A stretch of 64,000 bases of DNA from Dehalococcoidia bacterium (lineage in GTDB: Bacteria; Chloroflexota; Dehalococcoidia; Lucifugimonadales; UBA3495): NCBI GenBank assembly GCA_965205495.1, contig CBDBHA010000002.1, positions 1,782,326 to 1,846,325 of the forward strand, written 5' to 3'. Position 1 is the stretch's first letter. Every line of letters starts with the position of its first letter. A model generated the notes under the pieces. The model saw only the letters and a list, made by a program, of their open reading frames with translations, made no database searches and was not told the DNA's origin. Shown here piece after piece: positions 3,125 through 61,689 of the stretch. The position numbers and the translations under genes were made by a program.

Positions 3125-3200
3125 GGAAGCGGCGATTTGGGCAACCTGGGGGGTGAAGTTTAGATTCCTCCCTACGGTTCGGAATGACAGGTTAGGGGCG
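3125..3200. repeat. interspersed repeat family F2 (core TTTAGATTCCTCCCTACGGTTCGGAATGACAGG), partial copy
   Basis: The same core recurs at 18014, 21895, 29016, 45264 and 47327. Confidence 0.8.
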
Positions 3201-3235
3201 GGGGACAACCAAAAGGCCGCACTCCCCAACAACAA

Positions 3236-3350
3236 TCAAAAAACCCCATACCGTGCAATTCAATCGCCGGCTTCTCCTCAACCCTTCTGGGTTCCGGCTC
3301 AAGGCCGGAATGACGGTTTAATGTCAGGATCACTCATCAATTCCGAACAC
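3236..3350 (+). repeat. interspersed repeat family F3 (hairpin ATTCCGGC-N5-GCCGGAAT, end motif ACTCATCAATTCYGAACAC), 5'-truncated copy
   Basis: Aligns by eye to 43690-43801 and to the reverse complement of 7860-7975. Confidence 0.8.
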
Positions 3351-3434
3351 CTACGGGGGCGAGGGTCAACTTCCCTATTGAAGGGCCAGCTATTACAATA
3401 ACGCCAGAATTTTGCGACGAGGAACGACGTCAGG

Positions 3435-7258: not shown

Positions 7259-7293
7259 GAAAGGAATATATACAATTCTACCCTGAAAGGAAG

Positions 7294-7318
7294 GGCGGGC
7301 ATAAAGCCCGCCTTTTTT
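7294..7318. terminator. Rho-independent terminator, probably bidirectional
   Basis: GGCGGGC-ATAAA-GCCCGCC followed by T6, with an A-rich 5' flank. It lies between the convergent mutase gene (+) and the 7331 ORF (-). Confidence 0.75.
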
Positions 7319-7330
7319 ACTGTTACTACC

Positions 7331-7633
7331 TTATATCTGCCTGCCCATATCCCGAACTTCCTCGGCAGACCGGTACTGCCCTTTCTCCAACCTCTGAAAA
7401 CGACGCTTTTCCAATTCGGCCATCTCCAAATTAATCCGCCTTGCATTGATTCGCTCTTGCATTACTCTAACGGCCAACTTCATGTCACGATTGGCCGTCA
7501 ACAGTAAACTGGTTGCCCGTGGAACAACTCGGTCGAACTGCTCTATCGTATCGGCAACATCATCTGGAACATTGCTATCCAGCAAGCAATCCAAAGGTGT
7601 TTCAACTTCTTCTATCTCTCCCAAATATTCCAA
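7331..7633 (-). CDS. hypothetical small helical protein
   Basis: 100-aa ORF from a TTG in an A/T-richer islet. Overlaps the upstream 68-aa ORF by 22 nt. No recognisable family. Confidence 0.3.
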   Translation of the reverse strand: MEYLGEIEEVETPLDCLLDSNVPDDVADTIEQFDRVVPRATSLLLTANRDMKLAVRVMQERINARRINLEMAELEKRRFQRLEKGQYRSAEEVRDMGRQI

Positions 7634-7818
7634 GGCTTCCTGTGCCCACGCATAAAATCCTCGACTACCATCTGCCGGTCTGGCGGGCGGATCCGGTCAT
7701 ATACTGTTAAGGTTATTTGGACAACATCTGCCCGTACACTCTGCAACTCAATAAGGCGGACAACAAAACGGTCCACCGGCTTGAAGGCAGATTCAAAGTC
7801 CTGTTGCTCTTTCCTCAA
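7612..7818 (-). CDS. hypothetical small protein
   Basis: 68-aa ORF, first of an overlapping pair. No recognisable family. Confidence 0.25.
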   Translation of the reverse strand: MRKEQQDFESAFKPVDRFVVRLIELQSVRADVVQITLTVYDRIRPPDRQMVVEDFMRGHRKPWNIWER

Positions 7819-7859
7819 CCAATAATGGCAGCTTGGCCTCTTGTTCCTTCCCTGTGTAA

Positions 7860-8030
7860 GTGTTCAGACTTGGGGAGTCATCCCAACATTAAACCGTCAT
7901 TCCGGCCTTGAGCCGGAATCCAGAATGGTCAGGGAGAGACCAGCGTTCGAATTGCGCGGGGTTTCCTGGATTCCGGCTCGGGGGCCGGAATGACGGTTCC
8001 TGGGTTGAACTAACCCATTAATTCTGAATA
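7860..8030 (-). repeat. repeat family F3, full-length double-hairpin copy in inverted orientation
   Basis: Ends are GTGTTCAGA.. and ..ATTCTGAATA. The two hairpins are CATTCCGGCcttgaGCCGGAAT (about 7897-7918) and ATTCCGGCtcgggGGCCGGAAT (about 7970-7991). Confidence 0.85.
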
Positions 8031-8140
8031 GTTACTACTCCAACCGTTACTTGACAATAGGGACAAAACATTCCAACGTCCATAACCTCTCTTACCTACC
8101 CGGCTCTGGGGCTGGGGTAGAATTACATTTAATTCCCTTT

Positions 8141-11267: not shown

Positions 11268-11355
11268 CAGGACGCTTGCCAGGCCGGGTACGACCTGGAT
11301 TGCCGCCTTCGCGGGAATGACGATAGGTGTTCGTAGGGATTTTGCAATTGGCCTG
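11268..11355 (+). repeat. repeat family F1 (MITE-like), copy with an internal deletion
   Basis: CAGGACG|CTTGCCAGG..GGATTGCCGCCTTCGCGGGAATGACG..TTTGCAATTGGCCTG. It lacks the ATTGCAAAGTG..GGGA segment found in full copies. Confidence 0.8.
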
Positions 11356-11679: not shown

Positions 11680-11753
11680 TTTTACCCTCCCTAAGATTGG
11701 TCCCAAGTTGTTCCGCCATCAATTCCCAGCGGAGGGGGCCTCGGTTCACCGGG

Positions 11754-11857
11754 CAGGACGATTGCAAAGTGATGTTTTTGTGAGGAAAAGGGACACTTGC
11801 CAGCCATGGTCCAACCTGGATTCCCGCCTGCGCGGGAATGACGGCAGGTGTTCGTCC
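11754..11857 (+). repeat. repeat family F1, 3'-truncated copy
   Basis: CAGGACGATTGCAAAGTG...GGATTCCCGCCTGCGCGGGAATGACGG, with the right terminal inverted repeat missing. Confidence 0.8.
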
Positions 11858-12000
11858 TGATTCGCCGGGAACTCCGGTTGACCTGGTGGATGGCGTTGGA
11901 GTAAAATCGGGGCATCAGCGACCGGCAGTGGGACGCTCCCTCAGCGACCCCCCTCTTCGGAGGCCGGCCGCTCCTTTTTTGCCTAAAACCTTCGCCCGGC

Positions 12001-12549: not shown

Positions 12550-12610
12550 GACAATTCCTCCAACGTAGAGTGGATTTAGGGGACATTCCGGGTACAAGAG
12601 AAATCCTCAC

Positions 12611-12733
12611 CAGGACGATTGCGATGTGATGTAATTCTGAGGGAAATGGACGCTTGCCAGGAAGGGTAGGACCTGGATTCCCGCCTGCACGGGAATGACG
12701 ATGGGTGTTTGGAGGGGCTTTGCAATTGTCCTG
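12611..12733 (+). repeat. repeat family F1, complete MITE-like copy
   Basis: Terminal inverted repeats CAGGACGATTGC.. and ..GCAATTGTCCTG, central hairpin ATTCCCGC-ctgc-aCGGGAAT, flanked by AAATCCTCAC and AAACCCTCAC direct repeats. Confidence 0.85.
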
Positions 12734-12797
12734 AAACCCTCACCCCCACCGCTTGAGTCCGGTCCAGGGGTGAGGGTTTAAAGCGCGGGTTTACGGG

Positions 12798-17263: not shown

Positions 17264-17335
17264 TAGTCCGTTCACGGTTTGACGGGCTCACTAGGCATGG
17301 ACTGGAGTGGTCGTAACTGTTCAGGGTTAAAGGGT
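17264..17335. repeat. repeat family F4 (..TTCGACGGGCTCAGG..GGACTGGAG..), diverged copy
   Basis: Aligns by eye with 47480-47540 and 45337-45421. Confidence 0.55.
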
Positions 17336-17348
17336 TATCCCGATACAA

Positions 17349-17381
17349 CATCCGTCATTCCGGCTTTGAGCCGGAACGACG
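17349..17381. repeat. repeat family F3 hairpin fragment
   Basis: CCGTCATTCCGGCtttgaGCCGGAACGACG. Confidence 0.7.
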
Positions 17382-17424
17382 ATTGGGGGTTTTTAGTTTT
17401 CGAGGTGCTGGGACATTTCTTGGG

Positions 17425-17943: not shown

Positions 17944-18060
17944 GCAAGGGGGAAGTGTCAGTGAATTTTGGGGGTGGGGTCACCGTGAAGGGTTGGGGGT
18001 GGTTTTGGGCAGGGATTTTGAGATTCCTCCCTGCGGTTCGGAATGACCGGTAGGGGCGGT
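17944..18060 (+). repeat. repeat family F2 copy
   Basis: GGCAAGGGGGAAGTGTCAGT (shared with 45199) ... GATTTTGAGATTCCTCCCTGCGGTTCGGAATGACCGG. Confidence 0.75.
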
Positions 18061-21797: not shown

Positions 21798-21829
21798 GCG
21801 AAGGGGGTTGGATGTGTGGTGGGGGGCAC

Positions 21830-21983
21830 TTTTCATTTCGTTTTGGGGAGGTTGCGACGGCGAATCCGGGGACAAACCGGCTGGCGGCGATGGATTTTAG
21901 ATTCCTCCCTACGGTTCGGAATGACAGGTGGGGGGGTCAGGATGAAGGGGGGGTTGGAAGCGGCATTTGGGGAGAATTGAGAG
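21830..21983 (+). repeat. repeat family F2, long copy
   Basis: TTTTCATTTCGTTTTGGGGAGGTTGCGACGGCGAATCCGGGGACAAACCGGCTGGCGGCGATGGATTTTAGATTCCTCCCTACGGTTCGGAATGACAGG..GGAAGCGGCATTTGGGGAGAATTGAGAG. Nearly the same string occurs at 28952-29108. Confidence 0.85.
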
Positions 21984-21997
21984 GCCTGGGATGACGG

Positions 21998-22139
21998 CAG
22001 GGCGGTTGCGAAGTGATGGAATTGTGAGGGGAAGGGAAGCTTGTTGGCCTAGGTGCAACCTGGATTCCCGCCTACGCGGGAAAGACGGTAGGTGGCGGGA
22101 ATGACGATAGGTGTTCGTTGGGACTTTGCAATTGTCCTG
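21998..22139 (+). repeat. repeat family F1, complete copy with a duplicated GGGAA(T/A)GACG segment
   Basis: CAGGGCGGTTGCGAAGTG..GGATTCCCGCCTACGCGGGAAAGACGGTAGGTGGCGGGAATGACG..CTTTGCAATTGTCCTG. Confidence 0.85.
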
Positions 22140-28866: not shown

Positions 28867-28951
28867 TTAGACCTCCCGGCTTTTGGGTTGGCCGAAACAG
28901 TCTAGGATTAGCGGTTATCGCTGTCAAACGGAGGGTTGGCGGAGCGGGGTC

Positions 28952-29108
28952 TTTTAATTGTTGTTGTGGGGAGTTTGGGCCGACTAGTCCAGGGCAAACC
29001 GGCTGGCGGCGATGGATTTTAGATTCCTCCCTACGGTCGGAATGACAGGTGAGGGGGTTGGGGTGACATTGGGCAGGGGGCTGGAAGCGGCATTTGGGGA
29101 GAATTAAA
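28952..29108 (+). repeat. repeat family F2, long copy, followed by a 15-nt F1 left-end fragment at 29125-29139
   Basis: Near-identical to 21830-21983 by eye, then CAGGACGATGGGTGC. Confidence 0.85.
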
Positions 29109-29145
29109 AGACGGTGCCGGTGGGCAGGACGATGGGTGCATTGCG

Positions 29146-38560: not shown

Positions 38561-38651
38561 TTGAGGCTCCCTTTGTTTTGGTGTGGTGTTTGGGTCTGGC
38601 AATGGATGATAACAACAGGGGGCACGGTCTGACAACGGTGGACTGTTGGGG

Positions 38652-38775
38652 GTAGGACGATTGCAAAGTGGTGCAATTCGGGGCAAAAGGGAGGCTTGCC
38701 AGGCCAGGTACGACCTGGATTCCCGCCTTCTCGGGAATGACGATAGGTGTTCGTAGGGACTTTGCAGTTGTACTG
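38652..38775 (+). repeat. repeat family F1, complete copy
   Basis: TAGGACGATTGCAAAGTG..GGATTCCCGCCTTCTCGGGAATGACG..CTTTGCAGTTGTACTG, flanked by the direct repeat CTGTTGGGG (38643-51 and 38776-84). Confidence 0.85.
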
Positions 38776-38874
38776 CTGTTGGGGCGATAAGGCGTTACAT
38801 CGGGTTGGCGGAGTGCTAAAATCGGCCATGGACTCACCCAACCAGCGAGAAGGCCAGCATAACGAGGTGAAAAG

Positions 38875-42921: not shown

Positions 42922-43626
42922 TCAGCCCGAGCCTGGCCAGTGGGAGGTCAACCCGGCTCCTGCCCGGGGGATGGCCATGGCCCTGACCGGGCCGAAGGAG
43001 CGGCGGTGGATGAGGCAGGGGCCCAACTTCCGGAGGCGTTCGATGTGCTCCTTGGTGGGGTAACCCTTGTGGCGGGAGAAACCGTAGCCGGGGAAGCGGC
43101 CCTCGGCCCGCTGCATCCAGCGGTCGCGGGTGACCTTGGCCACGATGGAAGCGGCGGCGATGGAGTAGCTGAGGCTGTCACCTTTGACGATTACTTGGTA
43201 GGGGAAGGCACACTTCTTCAGGGGAATGTAGTCGAAGAGGACATGGTCCGGCTGAACCGGCAAGCCGGCCAGGGCGTTCATCATGGCCTGGATGGTCGCG
43301 GGTAGGATTCCCACGGCGTCGATGTCGTCGGAGTCCTGCTGACCGACGGCCACGGCGACGGCGTTAGCCTTGATGAGCTCCAAGGCTGCTTCGCGGCGGC
43401 GGTGGGAGAGCTTCTTGCTGTCGTTGATGTACCGGAGCCAGGGCTCGGAACCGGAGAGTTCGGCGGGGAGGATAACCGCCGCCGCGACCACCGGACCGGC
43501 CAAGGGGCCGCGGCCCGCTTCATCCACCCCGGCGATTAGCCGGCGTCCGGTTAAATGGACGCCCCGTTCCAGGTCCAGACCCGGCACATCCCCTCCCCTC
43601 GGTTGAAGCGGTTTAGCCAGCCACAT
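42922..43626 (-). CDS. rnhB: ribonuclease HII
   Basis: 234 aa. IAGVDEAGRGPLAGPVVAAAV and DSKKLS motifs. The exact start is uncertain. Confidence 0.9.
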   Translation of the reverse strand: MWLAKPLQPRGGDVPGLDLERGVHLTGRRLIAGVDEAGRGPLAGPVVAAAVILPAELSGSEPWLRYINDSKKLSHRRREAALELIKANAVAVAVGQQDSDDIDAVGILPATIQAMMNALAGLPVQPDHVLFDYIPLKKCAFPYQVIVKGDSLSYSIAAASIVAKVTRDRWMQRAEGRFPGYGFSRHKGYPTKEHIERLRKLGPCLIHRRSFGPVRAMAIPRAGAGLTSHWPGSG

Positions 43627-43632
43627 CTTAAC

Positions 43633-43801
43633 TATTCAAAATGAAGGAGTTGGCCCAACCCAAGATGCGTCGTTCCGGCCTCGAGCCGGAACCCAGGAAT
43701 CCCGGTCATTTAGAACGCTGGTCTCTCCCTGACCATTCTGGATTCCGGCTCAAGGCCGGAATGACGGTTTAATGGCAGGATTACTCATCAATTCTGAACA
43801 C
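43633..43801 (+). repeat. repeat family F3, full-length double-hairpin copy
   Basis: Fills the whole mnmA-rnhB intergenic gap. Its right end ..CAATTCTGAACAC abuts the mnmA stop codon (43802-04). Confidence 0.85.
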
Positions 43802-44875
43802 TTACGCCAAATCGTGTTCGATGACTCCGCCGCCCAATACGGTGTCGCTCTGGTAAAAGACCGCCGCCTGGCCCGGAGTGACCGCCCGTTGGGGTTGGTC
43901 GAACCGGACGACGGCGCTGCCAGCCGACGCGGAGAGGGTCGCGGGGGCCTCTTCAAACTTGTAGCGGATTTTGACTCCGATGCGGGTCGGTTGTTCCGGA
44001 GGCAGGCCGGAAACGTAGTTGACACGGGAAACGAGGAACTCCTGGCGGTAAAGTTCGGCTTCGGGCCCCACCACGACGGTGTTGGTCTCGGGTTCCAGGC
44101 GCACGACGTAACGGGGAGCGCCACCGGAGAGGCCGAGGCCCCGCCGTTGGCCCACGGTGAACATTTCGATACCTTCGTGGCCGCCGAGGACGTTGCCCGC
44201 CGAATCAACGATTTGACCCGGTTGAGTGGTGACCCGCTCTTTCAAAAAAGCTTTGTAGTCGCCGAAGGGGATGAAGCATATATCCTGGCTGTCAGGCTTT
44301 TCGGCGTTGGGAAAGCCGGCATCCAGGGCAAATTGGCGGATTTGCGGCTTAGAATAAGCACCGACGGGCATCAGGGTGTGGGCCAGTTCGTCTTGACCCA
44401 TGCCGTAGAGGACGTAGGACTGGTCCTTGCCGCCGTCCAGGCCCTTTTTCAAGGACCAACTGCCGGGGGATTGCTCGATGCGGGCGTAGTGCCCGGTGGC
44501 CACCAGGTCCGCGCCCAGCACCTGGGCCCGGTGGGCCAGGAAGTTGAACTTAATCTTGTCGTTGCAGGCGATGCAGGGGTGGGGGGTGCGGCCCTTCTGG
44601 TACTCGGAGCAGAAGTAGTCGATGACGAAGTCCTGAAACTCCCGTTGGACGTTCATCACGTAATGGGGGACGCCGAGGCGGTGGCAGACCATGCGGGCGT
44701 CATCGACATCATCGACGGTGCAGCAACCGCGGTAGTAATCGGGGAGGTCGGCGTGATCTAGGCTGTAGAGCTTCATGGTGACGCCCACGACGTCGTAACC
44801 CTGCTGCTGCAACAAGAGGGCCGCCACCGAGGAGTCAACGCCGCCGCTCATGGCGACCACGACACGTTCTTTCAT
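43802..44875 (-). CDS. mnmA: tRNA-specific 2-thiouridylase
   Basis: 357 aa. VVAMSGGVDSSVAA PP-loop, C..C.. and the full MnmA pattern. Confidence 0.95.
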   Translation of the reverse strand: MKERVVVAMSGGVDSSVAALLLQQQGYDVVGVTMKLYSLDHADLPDYYRGCCTVDDVDDARMVCHRLGVPHYVMNVQREFQDFVIDYFCSEYQKGRTPHPCIACNDKIKFNFLAHRAQVLGADLVATGHYARIEQSPGSWSLKKGLDGGKDQSYVLYGMGQDELAHTLMPVGAYSKPQIRQFALDAGFPNAEKPDSQDICFIPFGDYKAFLKERVTTQPGQIVDSAGNVLGGHEGIEMFTVGQRRGLGLSGGAPRYVVRLEPETNTVVVGPEAELYRQEFLVSRVNYVSGLPPEQPTRIGVKIRYKFEEAPATLSASAGSAVVRFDQPQRAVTPGQAAVFYQSDTVLGGGVIEHDLA

Positions 44876-45198: not shown

Positions 45199-45318
45199 GG
45201 CAAGGGGGAAGTGTCAGTAGAGCAGGGCGTTTTCATTGTCGTTGGAGGGTTGGCGGCGATGGATTTTAGATTCCTCCCTGCGGTCGGAATAACAGGTAGG
45301 GGTGGGCGAATGACAGGC
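45199..45318 (+). repeat. repeat family F2 copy
   Basis: GGCAAGGGGGAAGTGTCAGT..TTTTCATTGTCGTTGGAGGG..GATGGATTTTAGATTCCTCCCTGCGGTCGGAATAACAGG..GCGAATGACAGG. Confidence 0.8.
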
Positions 45319-45336
45319 GGAGCGGGGGCGGAGTGA

Positions 45337-45952: not shown

Positions 45953-45976
45953 GGTCCTTCGACGGGCTCAGGAACA
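45953..45976. repeat. repeat family F4 fragment, interrupted by the adjacent F1 copy
   Basis: GGTCCTTCGACGGGCTCAGGAAC. The F4-like sequence resumes after the F1 element (CAGGATGAAGGGG at 46120). Confidence 0.6.
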
Positions 45977-45978
45977 AG

Positions 45979-46119
45979 GGGGACGATTGCAAAGTGATGC
46001 AATTCTGAGGGAAAGGGACGCTTGCCAGGCCACGTGCATCCTGGATTCCCGCCTACGCGGGAATGACGGTAGGTGCGGGAATGACGGTAGGTGTTCGTCG
46101 GGACTTTGCAATTGTCCTG
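45979..46119 (+). repeat. repeat family F1, complete copy with a duplicated GGGAATGACGGTAGGTG segment
   Basis: GGGGACGATTGCAAAGTG...CTTTGCAATTGTCCTG, flanked by CAGGAACAAGG and CAGGATGAAGG. Confidence 0.85.
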
Positions 46120-46191
46120 CAGGATGAAGGGGGGTTGGGGGTAGTTGCAATACCCTGCGCTTTGATCGGAACGTTAGACTAACAGGAGAGG

Positions 46192-47151: not shown

Positions 47152-47161
47152 GTTCGTAAGG

Positions 47162-47258
47162 GTTCAGAATTGATGAGTTAGTCCAACCCAAGATCCGTCA
47201 TTCCGGCTCGAGGCCGGAATGACGGTTTAATGTTGGGATGATTCCTTGACTCTGAACG
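47162..47258 (+). repeat. repeat family F3, short single-hairpin copy
   Basis: GTTCAGAATTGATGAGT..CCGTCATTCCGGCtcgagGCCGGAATGACGG..CTCTGAACG. Confidence 0.85.
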
Positions 47259-47263
47259 CTTGC

Positions 47264-47373
47264 TTTTAATTGTCGTTGTGGGGGGTTTGCGACGACGAAT
47301 CCGGGGCAAACCGGCTGGGGGCGTTGGATTTTAGATTCCTCCCTGCGGTCGGAATGACAGGTTAGGGGGTTGG
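47264..47373 (+). repeat. repeat family F2 copy
   Basis: TTTTAATTGTCGTTGTGGGGGGTTTGCGACGACGAATCCGGGGCAAACCGGCTGGGGGCGTTGGATTTTAGATTCCTCCCTGCGGTCGGAATGACAGG. Confidence 0.85.
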
Positions 47374-47479
47374 AATTGCGGGTGGCCCTGGCTAGGCCAC
47401 GTATGAGGAATGAAAATGGAATTGCACTGGAACCCTTCGCAACTTGTTATTTTCATGCCAATGGGGGTGTTTAGTGCGA

Positions 47480-53096: not shown

Positions 53097-53262
53097 AATA
53101 GCGGCCAAGAGTGATGCGCTTCAGGTCCACGGCGGCAGGGCAACCGCGTCTTAACTTTCAACATACCAAACAAGCCGAAATCGCCGGAAAACTCCGATGA
53201 TTCCCGCGAAAGAGGCAATCCACACTGTTTTGCACCGGCAAATTGGTCCTGGCCCGCGACTT

Positions 53263-53291
53263 CTGGATTCCCGCCTGCGCGGGAAAGACGG
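53263..53291. repeat. repeat family F1 hairpin core only
   Basis: CTGGATTCCCGCCTGCGCGGGAAAGACGG. Confidence 0.65.
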
Positions 53292-53407
53292 GTGAATGAA
53301 CTTGCGGGCCTTATGATGCGATTGCCCTGGCCACGGCAGTTGCCGGCGGGATTGGGGTAGATACAGCATGGTAAACTGGCGGCCAAAGGCGGCCGGGAGG
53401 TGATCAC

Positions 53408-55221: not shown

Positions 55222-58200
55222 TTACCGCCGCAGCCAGACCTCGGTTAACCATTGCGTGGGCGAACGACGCCTTCCCGGCAAACTTTCGAAAGTGGACCTT
55301 CTGGCGATCCGGGGATGGCGGTAGAGCTTGCCCTGGCCATTCGCGCGTAGGATGTTGTGGTCCCGGACTTTTACGAAATCGTAGAGCCTCAGGAAACCTT
55401 CAACCCGATGCTCCGGATACGGCTGCTGGTCATCGTTTAACATTCCGTTTAGATAGAGGGTGAAATTTTCGACGGTGAGGTAGCCGTGGGTAATTTCGGC
55501 CATTTCTAGGGCCAGCGCCCGATAAGGGACTGACGCCCGCCGGTCCGTTCTATATCGTATCTTTTGCTGCCCAAAATAAGTTGCGATTCCGATTGAACCT
55601 ACCAGTCCGACACCCGTTGCTACAAACCAAAAGGGCATCCACAAATGGGGCCAATAGTCGCCGGAGTCGAGGTGCCCGTCATCGTCGGTGTCGGGGGTAG
55701 TTGGGTCGGTATAAACGGTGTACGCGAGCCCCAGCAAAGACACCGTGAACCCCCCAACCTCTTCGCCATCAGTTTTGTCGTCGCCATCGCTGTCAACGTT
55801 TAACGGGTCGGTCCCCCAGGCCCGTTCGGCGCCATCCCGCAAGGAATCGCCATCGGTATCGGGCAGGTCGGGACGGGTTGGCCGGCGTTGGGCGGGGTCC
55901 CCGCCGCTAACCCGATTTACTTCTTCGCCGTCGTTGACTCCGTCGCCGTCGGTGTCGGCCATGCAAGGGTTGGCGGCTACCGGCTCATTGGCTCCCACGT
56001 CCAAACGGCCAAGGTACTCGTCACCATCCGTTAAGTTGTCCCCATCGGTGTCCGCGGCGGTGGGGTCGGTGCATCCGAGCTGCAACTCCAGAGCATCGGA
56101 GAGGCCATCTTGGTCGGTGTCGCTGCTGGTGCAACTCATCTTCCTGTCGTATTCCTGCGAATCACCGATGCTATCCTGGTCGGTGTCGCTTCGCTGCGGA
56201 TGACAGCCGTAGTCCACCTCCAGATTGTCGGCCAACCCATCATCGTCGGTATCCGTGCGGGTGGGGTCGGTCGGAACGGTTTCTCCGGATGGTTGGAAGA
56301 CCATGCCGTAAACTTCCTGCCCGTCGGACAGACCGTCCTGGTCGGTATCGGGATTCTTGGGGTCGGTTTTTACGAGGAGCGCCTGTCCGTTGATGAGCAA
56401 CGAATGCCCCTCGAACTCGTGACTGTCCCCAAGGCCATCACCGTCGGTGTCGTCAGATAAAGGATTCAACCCGTGGGTTAAGATCTCTTCACCGTCGGTC
56501 AGGCCATCCCCATCCGTGTCTCGGTTTATGGGGTGGGTGTTATGGGTAATCTCTTCGCCATCCGAAAGGCCGTCCCCATCGGTGTCCGGGTTGGTGGGGT
56601 CCGGGTTGACCACCACATCGGTGCCGCCGTAGGAGAGCGTGTAACCCTGGACCTCCTCGCTGTCGGACAGCCCGTCGCCGTCGGTGTCGAGGGCTTTGGG
56701 ATCGGTGGAATACTTGTTGACTTCCGCGCCATCGGTGAGCTTGTCGCCGTCGGAATCGGGACTGTTGGGGTTGGTGCCATGGGTTTCAAGTTCTTCCCAA
56801 TCGTTGAGGCCGTCGTCGTCAGTGTCGGCTTGGGTGGGATTGGTCCGGTGCTGTTCCAGTTCCTCCCGGTCGGGAAGTTGGTCTCCATCGGTGTCGATAT
56901 TTTTGGGGTCAGTCCCATGAATATGGACTTCATCTCCGTCGGAAAGACCATCGCCATCGGTGTCACTCAATTCGGGGTCGGTAAGGTAAGTGTTAACCTC
57001 GGCGCCGTCGAGGAGGCCGTCGCCGTCGGTATCCCCGCTGGTGGGGTTGGCGCCTGCGGCGATTTCCTGCCCATCACTTAACCCATCGCCGTCAGAGTCA
57101 AAATTCACCGGGTCGGTGCCGTGGATATGGACCTCGTCGCCGTCTTTGAGGCCGTCCTTGTCGGTGTCCGGCAAAAGGGGGTCCGTTGGGCCATTGACCT
57201 CATCCCGGTCCGATAGCTTGTCTCCGTCGGTATCCGCCTTTCTGGGGTCAGTCTTGTAGTTGATGACTTCGGCATAGTCCGACAGGGCGTCGTTGTCGGT
57301 GTCTTTCAATATGGGGTTGGTCTTCCAGGTCTTGACCTCGGCCCCGTCCAGCAAGCCATCCCCGTCGGTGTCCTGCTTGTGGGGGTCGGAGCCCTTGCTG
57401 ATTTCATCACCGTCCTTCAGTCCGTCCCGGTCGGTATCAGGTCTTACCGGGTCGGTCCCGTAACGGTTTACCTCGTCCCCATCATTCAGGCCATCGCGGT
57501 CAGTGTCGGGGTCGGTAGCGTTGGTAACGCCCCGCAGTTCATCGGGGTCGGACAGCCCATCCCTATCGGTATCTCCGCGTATCGGGCTGGTGCCGTGTTG
57601 ATTGACCTCCGCCGCGTCGGACAAGCCATCGCCATCGGTGTCCGATTTGCGGGGATCGGAGCCATGAGTTTTGGCCTCCCTGCCGTCGGAGAGGCCGTCA
57701 TCGTCGGAGTCCGAGTCCAGGGGGTCGGTCCGGTATTGTTTGATTTCTTCGCCGTCGGAGAGGCCGTCGCCGTCGGTGTCGCGGTTGGTTGGATCGGTGC
57801 CGTGGCGGTTGACTTCGTTCCCATCGGAAAGGCCGTCGCCGTCGGTGTCTTCCCGAAGGGGGTTGGACCCGTGCTTGTTGACTTCGTTCCCATCGGAAAG
57901 GCCGTCGCCGTCGCTGTCTTCCCGAAGGGGGTTGGACCGGTGTTTGTTGACCTCGTTCCCATCGGAGAGGCCATCGCCGTCGCTGTCCGGCTCAAGAGGA
58001 TTGGTCCCCAGGTTGACTTCCGCGCCATCGGAAAGCCCATCGTTATCAGTGTCCGAGTCCAGTGGGTCGGTGCGATGGGTGGATACCTCGTCACCGTCCC
58101 CCAGGCCGTCGCCGTCGGTGTCGGCCCGGACGGGATTAGTATGGTAATCATTTACCTCGGCGCCATCGGACAGGCCGTCGCCGTCGGTGTCGCGGTTGTT

Positions 58201-58395
58201 CGGGTCGGTGCCACGGGCCGATTCGGCCTCGTCGGAAAGCCCGTCGCCGTCGCTGTCCACCGGGGACTCTTGAAGGGGAAGGGCGGCGATCAGGGTGAAC
58301 GACAGCAAGCCAATGGCAACCAGGGCTGCCAGGCGGCCCAGGAACGCTGCCCTTTGGGGGAGAGAATCTCTCAACTGGTCCACGATTGTAACCAA
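55222..58395 (-). CDS. single-pass membrane protein with 36 thrombospondin type-3 (DxDxDGxxDxxE) Ca-binding repeats and a ~116-aa cytoplasmic C-terminal domain
   Basis: 1057 aa. TTG start abuts the upstream stop. Signal anchor LAALVAIGLLSFTLIAAL. I counted 36 D(T/S)D.D..-initiated units, mostly 22-23 aa. TM helix MPFWFVATGVGLVGSIGIATYF, followed by a basic tail. Confidence 0.85.
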   Translation of the reverse strand: MVTIVDQLRDSLPQRAAFLGRLAALVAIGLLSFTLIAALPLQESPVDSDGDGLSDEAESARGTDPNNRDTDGDGLSDGAEVNDYHTNPVRADTDGDGLGDGDEVSTHRTDPLDSDTDNDGLSDGAEVNLGTNPLEPDSDGDGLSDGNEVNKHRSNPLREDSDGDGLSDGNEVNKHGSNPLREDTDGDGLSDGNEVNRHGTDPTNRDTDGDGLSDGEEIKQYRTDPLDSDSDDDGLSDGREAKTHGSDPRKSDTDGDGLSDAAEVNQHGTSPIRGDTDRDGLSDPDELRGVTNATDPDTDRDGLNDGDEVNRYGTDPVRPDTDRDGLKDGDEISKGSDPHKQDTDGDGLLDGAEVKTWKTNPILKDTDNDALSDYAEVINYKTDPRKADTDGDKLSDRDEVNGPTDPLLPDTDKDGLKDGDEVHIHGTDPVNFDSDGDGLSDGQEIAAGANPTSGDTDGDGLLDGAEVNTYLTDPELSDTDGDGLSDGDEVHIHGTDPKNIDTDGDQLPDREELEQHRTNPTQADTDDDGLNDWEELETHGTNPNSPDSDGDKLTDGAEVNKYSTDPKALDTDGDGLSDSEEVQGYTLSYGGTDVVVNPDPTNPDTDGDGLSDGEEITHNTHPINRDTDGDGLTDGEEILTHGLNPLSDDTDGDGLGDSHEFEGHSLLINGQALLVKTDPKNPDTDQDGLSDGQEVYGMVFQPSGETVPTDPTRTDTDDDGLADNLEVDYGCHPQRSDTDQDSIGDSQEYDRKMSCTSSDTDQDGLSDALELQLGCTDPTAADTDGDNLTDGDEYLGRLDVGANEPVAANPCMADTDGDGVNDGEEVNRVSGGDPAQRRPTRPDLPDTDGDSLRDGAERAWGTDPLNVDSDGDDKTDGEEVGGFTVSLLGLAYTVYTDPTTPDTDDDGHLDSGDYWPHLWMPFWFVATGVGLVGSIGIATYFGQQKIRYRTDRRASVPYRALALEMAEITHGYLTVENFTLYLNGMLNDDQQPYPEHRVEGFLRLYDFVKVRDHNILRANGQGKLYRHPRIARRSTFESLPGRRRSPTQWLTEVWLRR

Positions 58396-58767
58396 CTATC
58401 GCCGGGGCAACCGTGGGAAGTACTGCCGGTAAACGGCCGCCAGGATGCCGTCGGTTACCTGCTGGGCGGCCCGCTGCTGGGGAGCAGTTTGCGCCTGCTG
58501 CAATACTTCACCGGCAACGTCTAGGAGGCCCAGGGGGAGCCTTCGGGCCACGGCGTCGTTGATCTCCCGGTTGCAAAGTTCCCTGGCGGCCTGGACTTGG
58601 CGCACGTAATCGGGGGTGGATCCGAGGGAAGTCCCCAACTGCTCGTTGAGTTCCTGGAGGGCGGCGAGGAGCAAATGCAAAACGGTGGCCGGGGTTCCCT
58701 CCAGGGCCCTTTTCAGGGCCGCGGTCTTCAGTCCCTCCCTTTCCAGGGACTCAACAAGTTGACCCAT
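58396..58767 (-). CDS. small helical cytoplasmic protein of unknown function, or the -1-frame continuation of the upstream gene's tail
   Basis: 123 aa. The ATG at 58767 overlaps the upstream ORF by 40 nt, and the stop abuts the next gene's start. Confidence 0.45.
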   Translation of the reverse strand: MGQLVESLEREGLKTAALKRALEGTPATVLHLLLAALQELNEQLGTSLGSTPDYVRQVQAARELCNREINDAVARRLPLGLLDVAGEVLQQAQTAPQQRAAQQVTDGILAAVYRQYFPRLPRR

Positions 58768-60299
58768 GGCAACCCGCCGTTCGCTGTGGGGCCAGCCAAA
58801 CCTTCGAGGGTTTGCACGGCGGAAAGGACTACCTGTTCCCGGTCTAAAAGCGCCGACATATCCCCATTAACGCTGGGAGGGTTGGCAAGGACCGCTTCAA
58901 GGAAGGATAGCTCGCGCAATTCTTGCGCCTGCTGACCGAGAATGGCGGACAAGTTCCGCAGTTCGGTTGCTTTGGTTTCCTTGCGGCGCTGCATGGCCCG
59001 CTGCGCTGACGGGTCGGGCGGCTGCTCTTGGAGACCCCCGCGTTTGGACCGCAACCAAATGAAAAGCGTCACCAGAGCCGCAACAATAGAGAAGGCGATA
59101 ACCCCCACCACGGCCCAAAGCACCCATTTCCATGGTCCATCGAGACCGAAAAACCCGAAGAGACCTTGTTTCTCCGGTTCGGTTGTCACACCTGGGCCGG
59201 GGGTTGTCACAAGTTCTTGCTGATTGGCTGGGGGGATTTTCGTCTCAGTATAGCCAGCCACAAGGATTGCCTCAGTATCGGTGAGTTTGGGCGAGTTAGG
59301 TTTCGGGGTTTCGGCAATTTCTGGAGTCTCTGGGGCTGGGGTTGCCTGGGGGACGGTTTCGCTGGTCCCAGCGGTGGGGTCGCTGGTCGGACCAGGAGTT
59401 TCAACGTTGTGGTCATCGGTGAAACCATCACCGTCGGTGTCACCCTTCTTCGGATGGGTTCCGTAAAGGTTAACCTCATCGCCATCCGAGAGGGTGTCAC
59501 CGTCCGTGTCCTTTTTCAAAGGGTAGGTAAAGTATTTTTTTACCTCATCGCCGTCCGAGAGGCCGTCCTCATCGGTATCTGCGAGATTTGGATCGGTCTT
59601 GTAAGTTTCCACCTCATCCCAATCGGTGAGGCCGTCGCCATCCGAATCCTTTTGGTTTGGGTTGGTTCCATGAAACATCTCGAGGTTGTCGGCAAGCCTG
59701 TCGCCATCGGTGTCCTTGTTGTTGGGATTGGTCCCGTGTTCGTTCACCTCATCCCCGTCGGAGAGGCCGTCATTGTCGGAATCGGCCTTGAGTGGATCGG
59801 TTTGGTGGGTGTTCACCTCAGCGCCGTCAAGGAGGCCATCGCCGTCGGTATCTGCCCATAGTGGTTTAGAGTTATTTTCGGCTATTTCAACGTAGTCGGT
59901 TAGCCCGTCGGCATCGCTATCCGGGTCAAGCGGGTTCGTTTTGTACCTCTGTAGCTCCTGACCGTCGGGTAGGCCGTCCTTATCGGTGTCCTCTTCCAAT
60001 GGATTAGTCCGGTGGGTGTTCACCTCTTCCCCATCGGTAAGACCGTCCTTGTCGGTATCGCGGCTTTTAGGATCGGTCTCGTAGGTGCACAACTCGTCCC
60101 AGTCGGTGAGTCCGTCACCGTCAGAATCCGCTTTTCCAGGAGAGGCATCACAAACCTCTTGGAGGTTGTCGGTGAGGCCGTCCTTATCGGTGTCTTGTTG
60201 GGGAGCCTGGATCGGGACGGCGGCCACCAGGGTAAGCGCCAACAGGAGCGCCACGCTGGTTAAACCGAGTCCCCGGAAAATGTTTGAGAAAAGGTTCAT
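58728..60299 (-). CDS. single-pass membrane protein with 12 thrombospondin type-3 repeats, a Pro/Thr/Glu linker and a ~107-aa helical cytoplasmic tail
   Basis: 523 aa from the ATG at 60299 (GGAG 8 nt upstream). Signal peptide MNLFSNIFRGLGLTSVALLLALTLVAAV, 12 DxDxDG units and TM helix VLWAVVGVIAFSIVAALVTLFIWL. The longer ORF-track start overlaps the upstream gene. Confidence 0.8.
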   Translation of the reverse strand: MNLFSNIFRGLGLTSVALLLALTLVAAVPIQAPQQDTDKDGLTDNLQEVCDASPGKADSDGDGLTDWDELCTYETDPKSRDTDKDGLTDGEEVNTHRTNPLEEDTDKDGLPDGQELQRYKTNPLDPDSDADGLTDYVEIAENNSKPLWADTDGDGLLDGAEVNTHQTDPLKADSDNDGLSDGDEVNEHGTNPNNKDTDGDRLADNLEMFHGTNPNQKDSDGDGLTDWDEVETYKTDPNLADTDEDGLSDGDEVKKYFTYPLKKDTDGDTLSDGDEVNLYGTHPKKGDTDGDGFTDDHNVETPGPTSDPTAGTSETVPQATPAPETPEIAETPKPNSPKLTDTEAILVAGYTETKIPPANQQELVTTPGPGVTTEPEKQGLFGFFGLDGPWKWVLWAVVGVIAFSIVAALVTLFIWLRSKRGGLQEQPPDPSAQRAMQRRKETKATELRNLSAILGQQAQELRELSFLEAVLANPPSVNGDMSALLDREQVVLSAVQTLEGLAGPTANGGLPWVNLLSPWKGRD

Positions 60300-61689
60300 G
60301 GGGATAACTCCGGTGAGTGGTCTCATTCGCGGGCGGAAAGCTAGGGTTGGGGGAAGGCGTCGATGCCCGCCATGTGCTCCAGGCCCCGGTTCAGGACCAA
60401 CTGCTCGGGAATCCGGCGGATGGCGTCGGCCAACGATTCGCCGTTCTGGGGGGCCCAATCCGGGTCCTGAAGCGCCAACCTGAGCCCGTCCTCCAGTTCC
60501 GGGAATTCGGGGCCGCAGAGCAACACGGTTAAACGGACGTCGGTCATTTGGGGAAAGCCGGCCATGAAAAAGCGGGCGAACCGCGACCTGTTGTTGGTTT
60601 CCGGCCCAGCCTCCGGGGCGCAGACCTCCCGGAGGAAGTCTTGGAAGCGGAGCAAGGCCAGGTTGTCGGGAATCATCCTTTCCAACGCCCAAGCGGGACC
60701 GGACAGCAGGGCCAAAATATTGCGGGAGGTGTAAGGGTCGCAATTGATGGTGGTGGCTTCGAACGCTTTGTCCAGCATATCCATGATGTCGGGAAGGCGG
60801 TTGGAATCCTTGGCGGCCACCAGGTTGGCCCGCATATTCTTGATGCGTTGGGGCGCGTTGGAAAGGGGAAATATTGAAAAGCCGGCGGCGATGAATTGGT
60901 GGGAAGCATCTCCGAGGGGCGCAACGGTAAGGCGGACGTTGGCCGGGTCCAGTTGAGTCCCGAAGGGGGCAAAGTGATAGGCAGCCTGGGCCGATAGGAA
61001 CACGGGCATGAGCACATCTTGCAAGTGCCGGTTAACTTCGGTTACCAGGTCTCGATGCCCCTGCTGGAGCAAAAGAAGGTTGTCGGCCAGGATTATGCCG
61101 TTGATGGCCGAGGTGGTGGCCAGGTAGTAAAGGGAAGTCAGCAGATTGCCCAACATGCGGGGGTCTCCGCGACCGGCGCCCTGGTCCCGCTCGGGGATGA
61201 TACAAACGCTGAAAGTTGCCACCGGCGCCGGTTCCATCACCTGCTGCATCCAGTCCACCACCACCGGCACCGACCCCGAACCGGTGCCGCCTCCCAGCCC
61301 GCTAAAGGTGGTCAAGTAACCGTTGTACACCCGGCTCAATACATTGGCCTCGTTAAGATGGCCAAGGTTGGCTTCCCGAGCGTCGGCGTTCGAGCGGAAA
61401 TTGTATAAGGCGGAGGCTCGGCCATTGAGGGTAAATCCGCCGGCCCCTCCAGTCCTTTCCACGCTGTACCCCTGCCCGGCCTGGCCCTCCTCATCCCCCG
61501 GCGCTGAAGGCAGGCCCAGGAGTTCGGGGATGTCTTCAGGCGGCGGCGGGGCGAAGGCGATTTGGACCCTGGGGTCGTGCCAACCGAAGAAATTGTCCAT
61601 TCTTTCCGGCAGGTCGGCCTGGGTGTCCATGGCGATGGCGCGGACCGGAAAGGTTCCCGGAAGAACCGCGGAAACAAAGTCGGGTTTCA

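Follow-up and report, generated by a model that had tools for sequence, protein, structure and literature searches.

Correia elements of Neisseria are small, non-autonomous, intergenic elements present in many copies, with terminal inverted repeats, internal protein-binding or structural motifs and a TA duplicated at the target, and they have no known autonomous partner. REP and BIME sequences are short intergenic hairpin repeats, often arranged in mosaics, which have a RAYT partner and carry neither long terminal repeats nor target duplications. The NTS/dRS3 repeats of Neisseria are found free-standing or in mosaic arrays. Insertion sequences of the ISAs1 family duplicate 8 to 10 bp of their target and have terminal repeats that start with CAGGAC or CAGGGC (ISfinder). 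The 28-nt Neisseria Transformation Sequence (NTS) contains the dRS3 palindrome ATTCCC-N8-GGGAAT. It serves as the target for SsnA, a GIY-YIG nuclease that acts specifically on single-stranded DNA, and both the GTC preceding the palindrome and the C following it are reported to be critical for cleavage and binding; how such repeats multiply was left open (PMC11893778).

The window analyzed here, a stretch of DNA of 64,000 nucleotides, comes from an uncultured soil Dehalococcoidia bacterium that hosts F1, a small repeat without a transposase of its own. Very probably, F1 is a non-autonomous MITE that depends on an ISAs1-family transposase acting in trans, makes 10-bp target duplications, and carries an NTS-type hairpin as cargo. 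It shares with ISAs1 insertion sequences and derived MITEs the CAGGAC/CAGGGC-type ends and the 10-bp duplication, its ends being identical to those of ~1.22-kb elements, but it has no coding capacity and its interior is unrelated to theirs; a literature search found no description of an ISAs1-derived MITE. Like Correia elements, F1 is an intergenic MITE with terminal inverted repeats and an internal motif, from which it differs by its 10-bp duplication and its ISAs1-type ends. The window also holds several hairpin families of the REP/BIME kind, whereas F1 has both terminal repeats and duplications, and no Y1 gene was seen. Its hairpin is an exact fit to the 28-nt NTS/dRS3 consensus, including GTC and C, but the window copies all lie inside MITEs with terminal repeats, and their host belongs to the Chloroflexota, a phylum unnamed in the main text of PMC11893778, in which MITEs are not mentioned either. 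As a MITE, F1 represents a new family within a well-known class and is routine on its own; a DDE-type MITE with a conserved NTS hairpin cargo appears to be unreported. With F1, a poorly studied phylum gains an ISAs1-derived family, one that also records recent genome change among strains ~95% identical.

That F1 is a true repeat family, as the earlier note on this DNA had claimed, was confirmed by a search for its ends, a search for its hairpin, and alignment. The window contains six terminally complete copies, all six on the plus strand:

11268-11355, plus strand: F1 copy of 88 bp that has lost 35 bp internally, close to the left end, both termini kept
11754-11859, plus strand: F1 copy of 106 bp with a 17-bp deletion within the right terminal repeat, both termini kept
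12611-12733, plus strand: F1 copy of 123 bp, the copy of the original finding, with ends CAGGACGATTGCGATG and CTTTGCAATTGTCCTG
21998-22139, plus strand: F1 copy of 142 bp with a 19-bp tandem duplication
38653-38775, plus strand: F1 copy of 123 bp
45979-46119, plus strand: F1 copy of 141 bp, in which 19 bp of the 3' hairpin arm are duplicated in tandem

The four copies that had been listed as full (at 12611, 21998, 38652, and 45979) are all in this set, the third with its start at 38653. Those at 11268 and 11754 had been called truncated; both retain their two termini and are internally deleted instead, CAGGACG being fused directly to CTTGCCAGG at the deletion point of copy 11268. Two further supposed copies drop out, since the one at 29125 has only ~9 nt in common with F1 and was missed by both the end search and BLAST, and the one at 53263 is the hairpin only, set in a different MITE of 194 bp. 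Nor is there support for the nesting of copy 45979 in an F4 repeat, as had been thought: the identity is limited to 15 G-rich nucleotides on the right flank, and the left flank shares nothing with F4.

All complete copies have in common the terminal inverted repeats CAGGACGATTGCAAAGT, 16 to 17 bp long. In the window, the 16-mer end CAGGACGATTGCAAAG finds 11 matches with at most 3 mismatches, against 0.46 expected; every one of them is an F1 end, and they pair as plus and minus at six places. The left and right ends of the consensus are complementary at 15 of 16 positions, in agreement with the 15/16 matches first reported. Both the repeat finder and the multiple alignment place the copies in one family, with pairwise identities of 80 to 88%, and BLAST with the 123-nt consensus recovers them at 75 to 94% identity. 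At 88 to 142 bp, the copies are too short to encode a transposase, and they lie between called genes or candidate reading frames. A promoter and terminator scan of the region from 11 to 13 kb gave nothing within F1 above shuffled sequences. The alignment shows that copies 21998 and 45979 have the same 19 bp of the 3' hairpin arm duplicated in tandem, which indicates that copying of the short unit itself went on once this change had arisen. Given the 80 to 88% identity and the damaged ends of several copies, most of them are probably no longer mobile.

The boundaries of F1 were set by alignment before the 10-bp flanks were compared. Four of the six copies have flanks that agree over 10 bp in exact register, at 8 to 9 of 10 positions:

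Copy 11754: 11744-11753 GTTCACCGGG and 11860-11869 ATTCGCCGGG, target-site duplication, 8/10
Copy 12611: 12601-12610 AAATCCTCAC and 12734-12743 AAACCCTCAC, target-site duplication, 9/10
Copy 38653: 38643-38652 CTGTTGGGGG and 38776-38785 CTGTTGGGGC, target-site duplication, 9/10
Copy 45979: 45969-45978 CAGGAACAAG and 46120-46129 CAGGATGAAG, target-site duplication, 8/10

Random pairs of 10-mers taken from this window with the same spacing reach at least 8/10 at a frequency of 0.001 per site, and the chance of such a match at three or more of six sites is ~2e-8. Copies 11268 and 21998 have no 10-bp flank duplication (1/10 positions match for the former). The flanking direct repeats had originally been given as 9 to 11 bp long: the duplication stands for four of the six copies, but its length is not variable, being exactly 10 bp, and the range stems from uncertain element boundaries.

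Insertion polymorphism between relatives, the comparison proposed at the outset, yielded a filled site in one relative, L131, and precise empty sites in two, L125 and L132, in which a single 10-mer is present and 133 bp (123 + 10) are absent. At the 12611 site, strain L131 (96-97% nucleotide identity) has AAACCCTCAC-F1-AAACCCTCAC, a perfect 10/10 duplication, and species L125 (an 87% relative) has one AAACCCTCAC and no element. At the 38653 site, strain L132 (~95.5% nucleotide identity) has one CTGCTGGGGA with exactly 133 bp missing, and both flanks align perfectly. These sites show the insertion of a short element with ISAs1-type ends, accompanied by a 10-bp duplication, where relatives have none. 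F1 is also missing from the intergenic site of copy 45979 in L132; this does not count as a third empty site, the L132 sequence being too diverged to define one. In three relatives (87-89% protein identity), the 22 kb of syntenic DNA that hold four F1 copies in the window contain none. These more distant relatives were reached through protein homologues, and homologues of the window's genes bear Dehalococcoidia names. A look-up with the neighboring xanthine-dehydrogenase-family protein led to the source contig (ERZ25068966 ctg565555, 2.44 Mb) and to two near-identical strains, in which the covered region has all four F1 copies; no polymorphism was seen at these four sites among L001-L003. At the site of copy 21998, the intergenic region of the 96-97% identical strain L131 has undergone fast turnover, the left half of F1 being replaced there by unrelated repeats of the GTTCGTCCTGAGCCCCGTCGAAGGG type (L131 1237-1560).

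The F1 copies diverge from one another by 12 to 20%, compared with ~4.5% between strains distinguished by an insertion. Hence, either source copies that had already diverged were still mobile recently, or the strain without the element lost it precisely via the 10-bp repeats.

A scan with the 15-nt F1 end, covering one genome per species, gave many matches in Dehalococcoidia genomes. In sister Dehalococcoidia genomes, ends identical to those of F1 form plus/minus pairs 1.22 to 1.34 kb apart, and the long elements that they enclose encode a protein with PF13808 (E = 1e-17) and DDE_Tnp_1. The assignment to the ISAs1 transposases was made on the L055 element, not on the window sequence: its frame-fused protein matches NF033564, the NCBIfam model of the ISAs1 family, with 146.9 bits (cut-off, 70) over positions 1 to 313 of 314. 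Among 20 elements with F1-type ends, the duplication is perfect (10/10) in 9 and 8-9/10 in a further two; in three, 9-bp duplications were seen by eye. The transposase of these elements forms more than 800 clusters in the protein collection, nearly all from ENA assemblies. Within the window or ~8 kb to each side of it, no ISAs1 transposase was found, which agrees with the earlier statement that the window has no autonomous partner. The gene sought at that time, a transposase flanked by the same terminal repeats, does exist in sister genomes, not in the window or its ~8-kb flanks, and the matching insertion sequences are known from other species only. From this identity of ends, we infer that the transposase of the sister-genome insertion sequences is what would move F1.

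Other plus/minus pairs of the same end lie 100 to 145 bp apart and correspond to other MITE families with different interiors. One of them, a 133-bp family with the same ISAs1-type ends, was seen in the Dehalococcoidia L021, L037, L087, L095, and L103; its interior differs from that of F1, consisting of a long hairpin of the CTCATCCTGAGCTTGTCGAAGGATG type, and most of its copies have perfect 9- to 10-bp duplications. The shared ends imply that this group of insertion sequences yielded several unrelated MITE families. The ISAs1 elements with F1 ends are themselves split into 230-aa and 153-aa frames at a conserved GAAAAAAAG run, located at 3884-3892 in L055 and at element positions 745-754 in L012, L066, L070, and L101, where the adjoining bases vary. 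A -1 shift joins the two frames into a full-length ISAs1 transposase, the 230-aa form accounts for most of the listed transposase clusters, and in L090, a relative with six A's, the transposase lies in a single frame. The pattern resembles programmed frameshifting or transcriptional slippage, which is not known to have been described for the ISAs1 family; a homopolymer sequencing error is less likely, because the name of the L055 contig (ptg...) suggests a hifiasm HiFi assembly.

We propose that an ISAs1-family DDE transposase supplied in trans would recognize the 16- to 17-bp terminal repeats (CAGGACGATTGCAAAGT) and insert F1 at staggered cuts 10 bp apart, the repair of which would leave the 10-bp target duplication. 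The unit carries a single hairpin as cargo, which on the minus strand is the Neisseria-type NTS/dRS3 motif, and the copies would decay after insertion. The 10-bp duplications, the two empty sites, and the ISAs1 ends support the view, already put forward in the earlier note, of a MITE spread by transposition. Points against it include the two of six copies without a duplication, a partner found only in other species, and the uniform orientation of all six copies.

The identity of the hairpin had not been recognized in the earlier note. The arrangement GGATTCCCGC-N4-GCGGGAATGACG has seven matches in the window, all on the plus strand, against none expected. The minus-strand sequence of the F1 hairpin, CGTCATTCCCGCGCAGGCGGGAATCCAG, fits the 28-nt NTS consensus CGTCATTCCCGCGMAVGCGGGAATCYRG. 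Seven NTS modules, all on the minus strand, have 0 to 2 mismatches to CGTCATTCCCGCGMAVGCGGGAATCYRG, and the consensus found no match in 30 simulated windows. They are located as follows, together with the second MITE that contains one of them:

12673-12700, minus strand: NTS-type hairpin within the F1 copy of the original finding, 8-bp stem and 4-nt loop
11295-11322, minus strand: NTS module
11816-11843, minus strand: NTS module of copy 11754, an exact 28/28 match
22060-22087, minus strand: NTS module
38715-38742, minus strand: NTS module
46041-46068, minus strand: NTS module
53263-53290, minus strand: NTS module
53136-53329, plus strand: different MITE of 194 bp with CAGGGC-type terminal repeats, holding the 53263 hairpin

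The degenerate SRM pattern (PMC11893778) fits five of the seven hairpins and has 6 matches in the window against 0.8 expected, and the invariant positions of the F1 hairpins include the GTC and the C on either side of the palindrome. The 194-bp MITE has terminal repeats CAGGGCAACCGCGTCTTAA and TTATGATGCGATTGCCCTG, complementary at 16 of 19 positions, and 10-bp flanks TCCACGGCGG and GCCACGGCAG that match at 8/10. With six hairpins in F1 and one in this element, all NTS-type hairpins of the window are inside ISAs1-type MITEs. Across the six F1 copies, the 28-nt module has a pairwise identity of 93.8%, compared with 78.9% for the rest and 82 to 91% for the terminal repeats, and 25 of its 28 columns are invariant (hypergeometric P = 5e-4). 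This conservation above the rest of F1 suggests that the hairpin may be kept because a host protein uses it, most plausibly an Ssn-family single-strand nuclease. A six-frame motif search of the window and all fetched loci, covering ~79 kb of this genome, showed no Ssn/GIY-YIG gene (cd10448), a gene often flanked by the motif, and Pfam gave no Ssn/GIY-YIG match for ten small reading frames near the hairpins.

Beyond the window, the NTS motif occurs 20 times in 264 kb of the Dehalococcoidia loci fetched, versus none in 632 kb from other taxa, and one hit, in L088, lies within a MITE of 145 bp whose 10-bp duplication is perfect. When 119 genome loci were searched by BLAST with the F1 consensus, the hairpin module alone was returned, never the whole element. 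Within the fetched genome loci and the JGI metagenomes searched, F1 was met only in this strain group; one JGI metagenome match to the F1-specific pattern was discarded as a chance match in unrelated DNA.

The six F1 copies run in the same direction (6/6, two-sided P of ~0.03), a uniformity that a DDE transposon does not predict. The plus strand has a positive GC skew across the whole window. Taking the window with ten other Dehalococcoidia loci, 21 of 27 motifs are on the locally C-rich strand (P = 0.006), a tendency that is not significant (14/20) once the window, which was the source of the idea, is left out. In the usual reading of GC skew, the C-rich strand is the leading-strand template, the least exposed in replication. 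As a hypothesis only, the strand carrying the recognizable hairpin could mostly be the leading-strand template, the one that replication exposes least, and the strand bias thus suggests a testable link to replication.

More broadly, and only tentatively, NTS-type hairpins of these soil Dehalococcoidia may have spread around the chromosome as cargo of ISAs1-type MITEs, after which the hairpin rather than the ends would be kept by selection, mostly on the leading-strand template. The 28-nt Ssn target defined in Neisseria is unchanged in Chloroflexota, where it is better conserved than the transposon ends, and hitch-hiking on a transposon provides a testable answer to how such repeats multiply. 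If true, this would offer a concrete mechanism for unexplained repeat expansions and tie a single-strand nuclease system to a DDE transposon.

The same hairpin could argue for a different origin, in which F1 is a REP/BIME- or NIME-like hairpin repeat spread by a RAYT Y1 transposase or an Ssn nuclease and not by a DDE enzyme. Its best-conserved part is a hairpin identical to NTS/dRS3, its single orientation and the tendency toward the C-rich strand are a bias typical of single-strand mechanisms, and several other hairpin families of the window have a GTCATTCC core. However, single-strand mechanisms need no 17-bp terminal repeats and make no 10-bp duplications, whereas F1 has both, matching those of ISAs1 elements; moreover, empty sites differ from filled ones by exactly the element plus 10 bp, and the window showed neither a Y1 nor a GIY-YIG gene. 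This origin, which we consider highly unlikely, is largely refuted by the duplications and empty sites.

We give still less credence to the idea that the F1 copies are independent remnants of full-length ISAs1 elements, each left by loss of the interior, rather than a family of short units. They do have the same ends as the full-length elements, and the first ~30 nt of F1 show a faint similarity to the left end of the element in L070, but all copies share the same ~90-bp interior, which is present in none of the full-length elements, and the derived 19-bp duplication in two of them means that a short unit was copied. Least credible of all is a cis-regulatory or small-RNA element kept for the expression of neighboring genes: the copies lie between genes, single-strand folding of the consensus is good (z = -6.6), and one copy adjoins the terminator hairpin of a xanthine-dehydrogenase-family gene, but individual copies fold weakly (z of -1 to -3), an Rfam search found no family for F1, orientation to the flanking genes varies (minus-strand genes at 11.7 and 12.6 kb, candidate plus-strand frames at 22 and 46 kb), and close relatives are without the element.

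Besides F1, which we continue to regard as an ISAs1-type MITE, the window contains at least three more families of intergenic hairpin repeats, with a core GTCATTCC...GGAAT, differing stems, and an often mosaic arrangement:

3149-3355, 17311-17384, 18008-18057, and 21829-21963: other hairpin-repeat families
28951-29085, 43626-43806, 45248-45332, and 47154-47397: other hairpin-repeat families

They include F4 (core AGATTCCTCCCTACGGTTCGGAATGACAGG) and ATTCCGGCTCAAGGCCGGAATGACGG. In the window, GGAATGAC occurs 17 times on the plus strand and 3 times on the minus strand, and the published SRM pattern fits one non-F1 site only.

Three other features were noted along the window:

7263-8137: 875-bp insertion, present in the window strain and missing from strain L002
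11917-11972, minus strand: motif of ~56 nt between a carboxymuconolactone-decarboxylase-family gene and a DUF4286 gene
55222-60743, minus strand: long arrays of 66- to 69-bp repeats within two large reading frames

The 875-bp insertion has terminal inverted repeats of ~21 bp (GGAATATATACAATTCTACCC and GGGTAGAATTACATTTAATTCC) with flanks TTTAGGAAA and TTTAGAAAA, a 100-aa reading frame for which Pfam has no match, and a pair of oppositely oriented GTCATTCCGGC-type hairpins. The ~56-nt motif is conserved in four species while the remaining spacer has diverged; its three-stem fold shows two base pairs changed on both sides, Rfam has no match for it, and it is possibly an undescribed cis-regulatory RNA. 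The 66- to 69-bp repeats encode aspartate-rich units of the calcium-binding type, a gene product near these arrays matches bacterial thrombospondin type 3 repeats (PF18884), and the arrays make up most of the families reported by the repeat finder.
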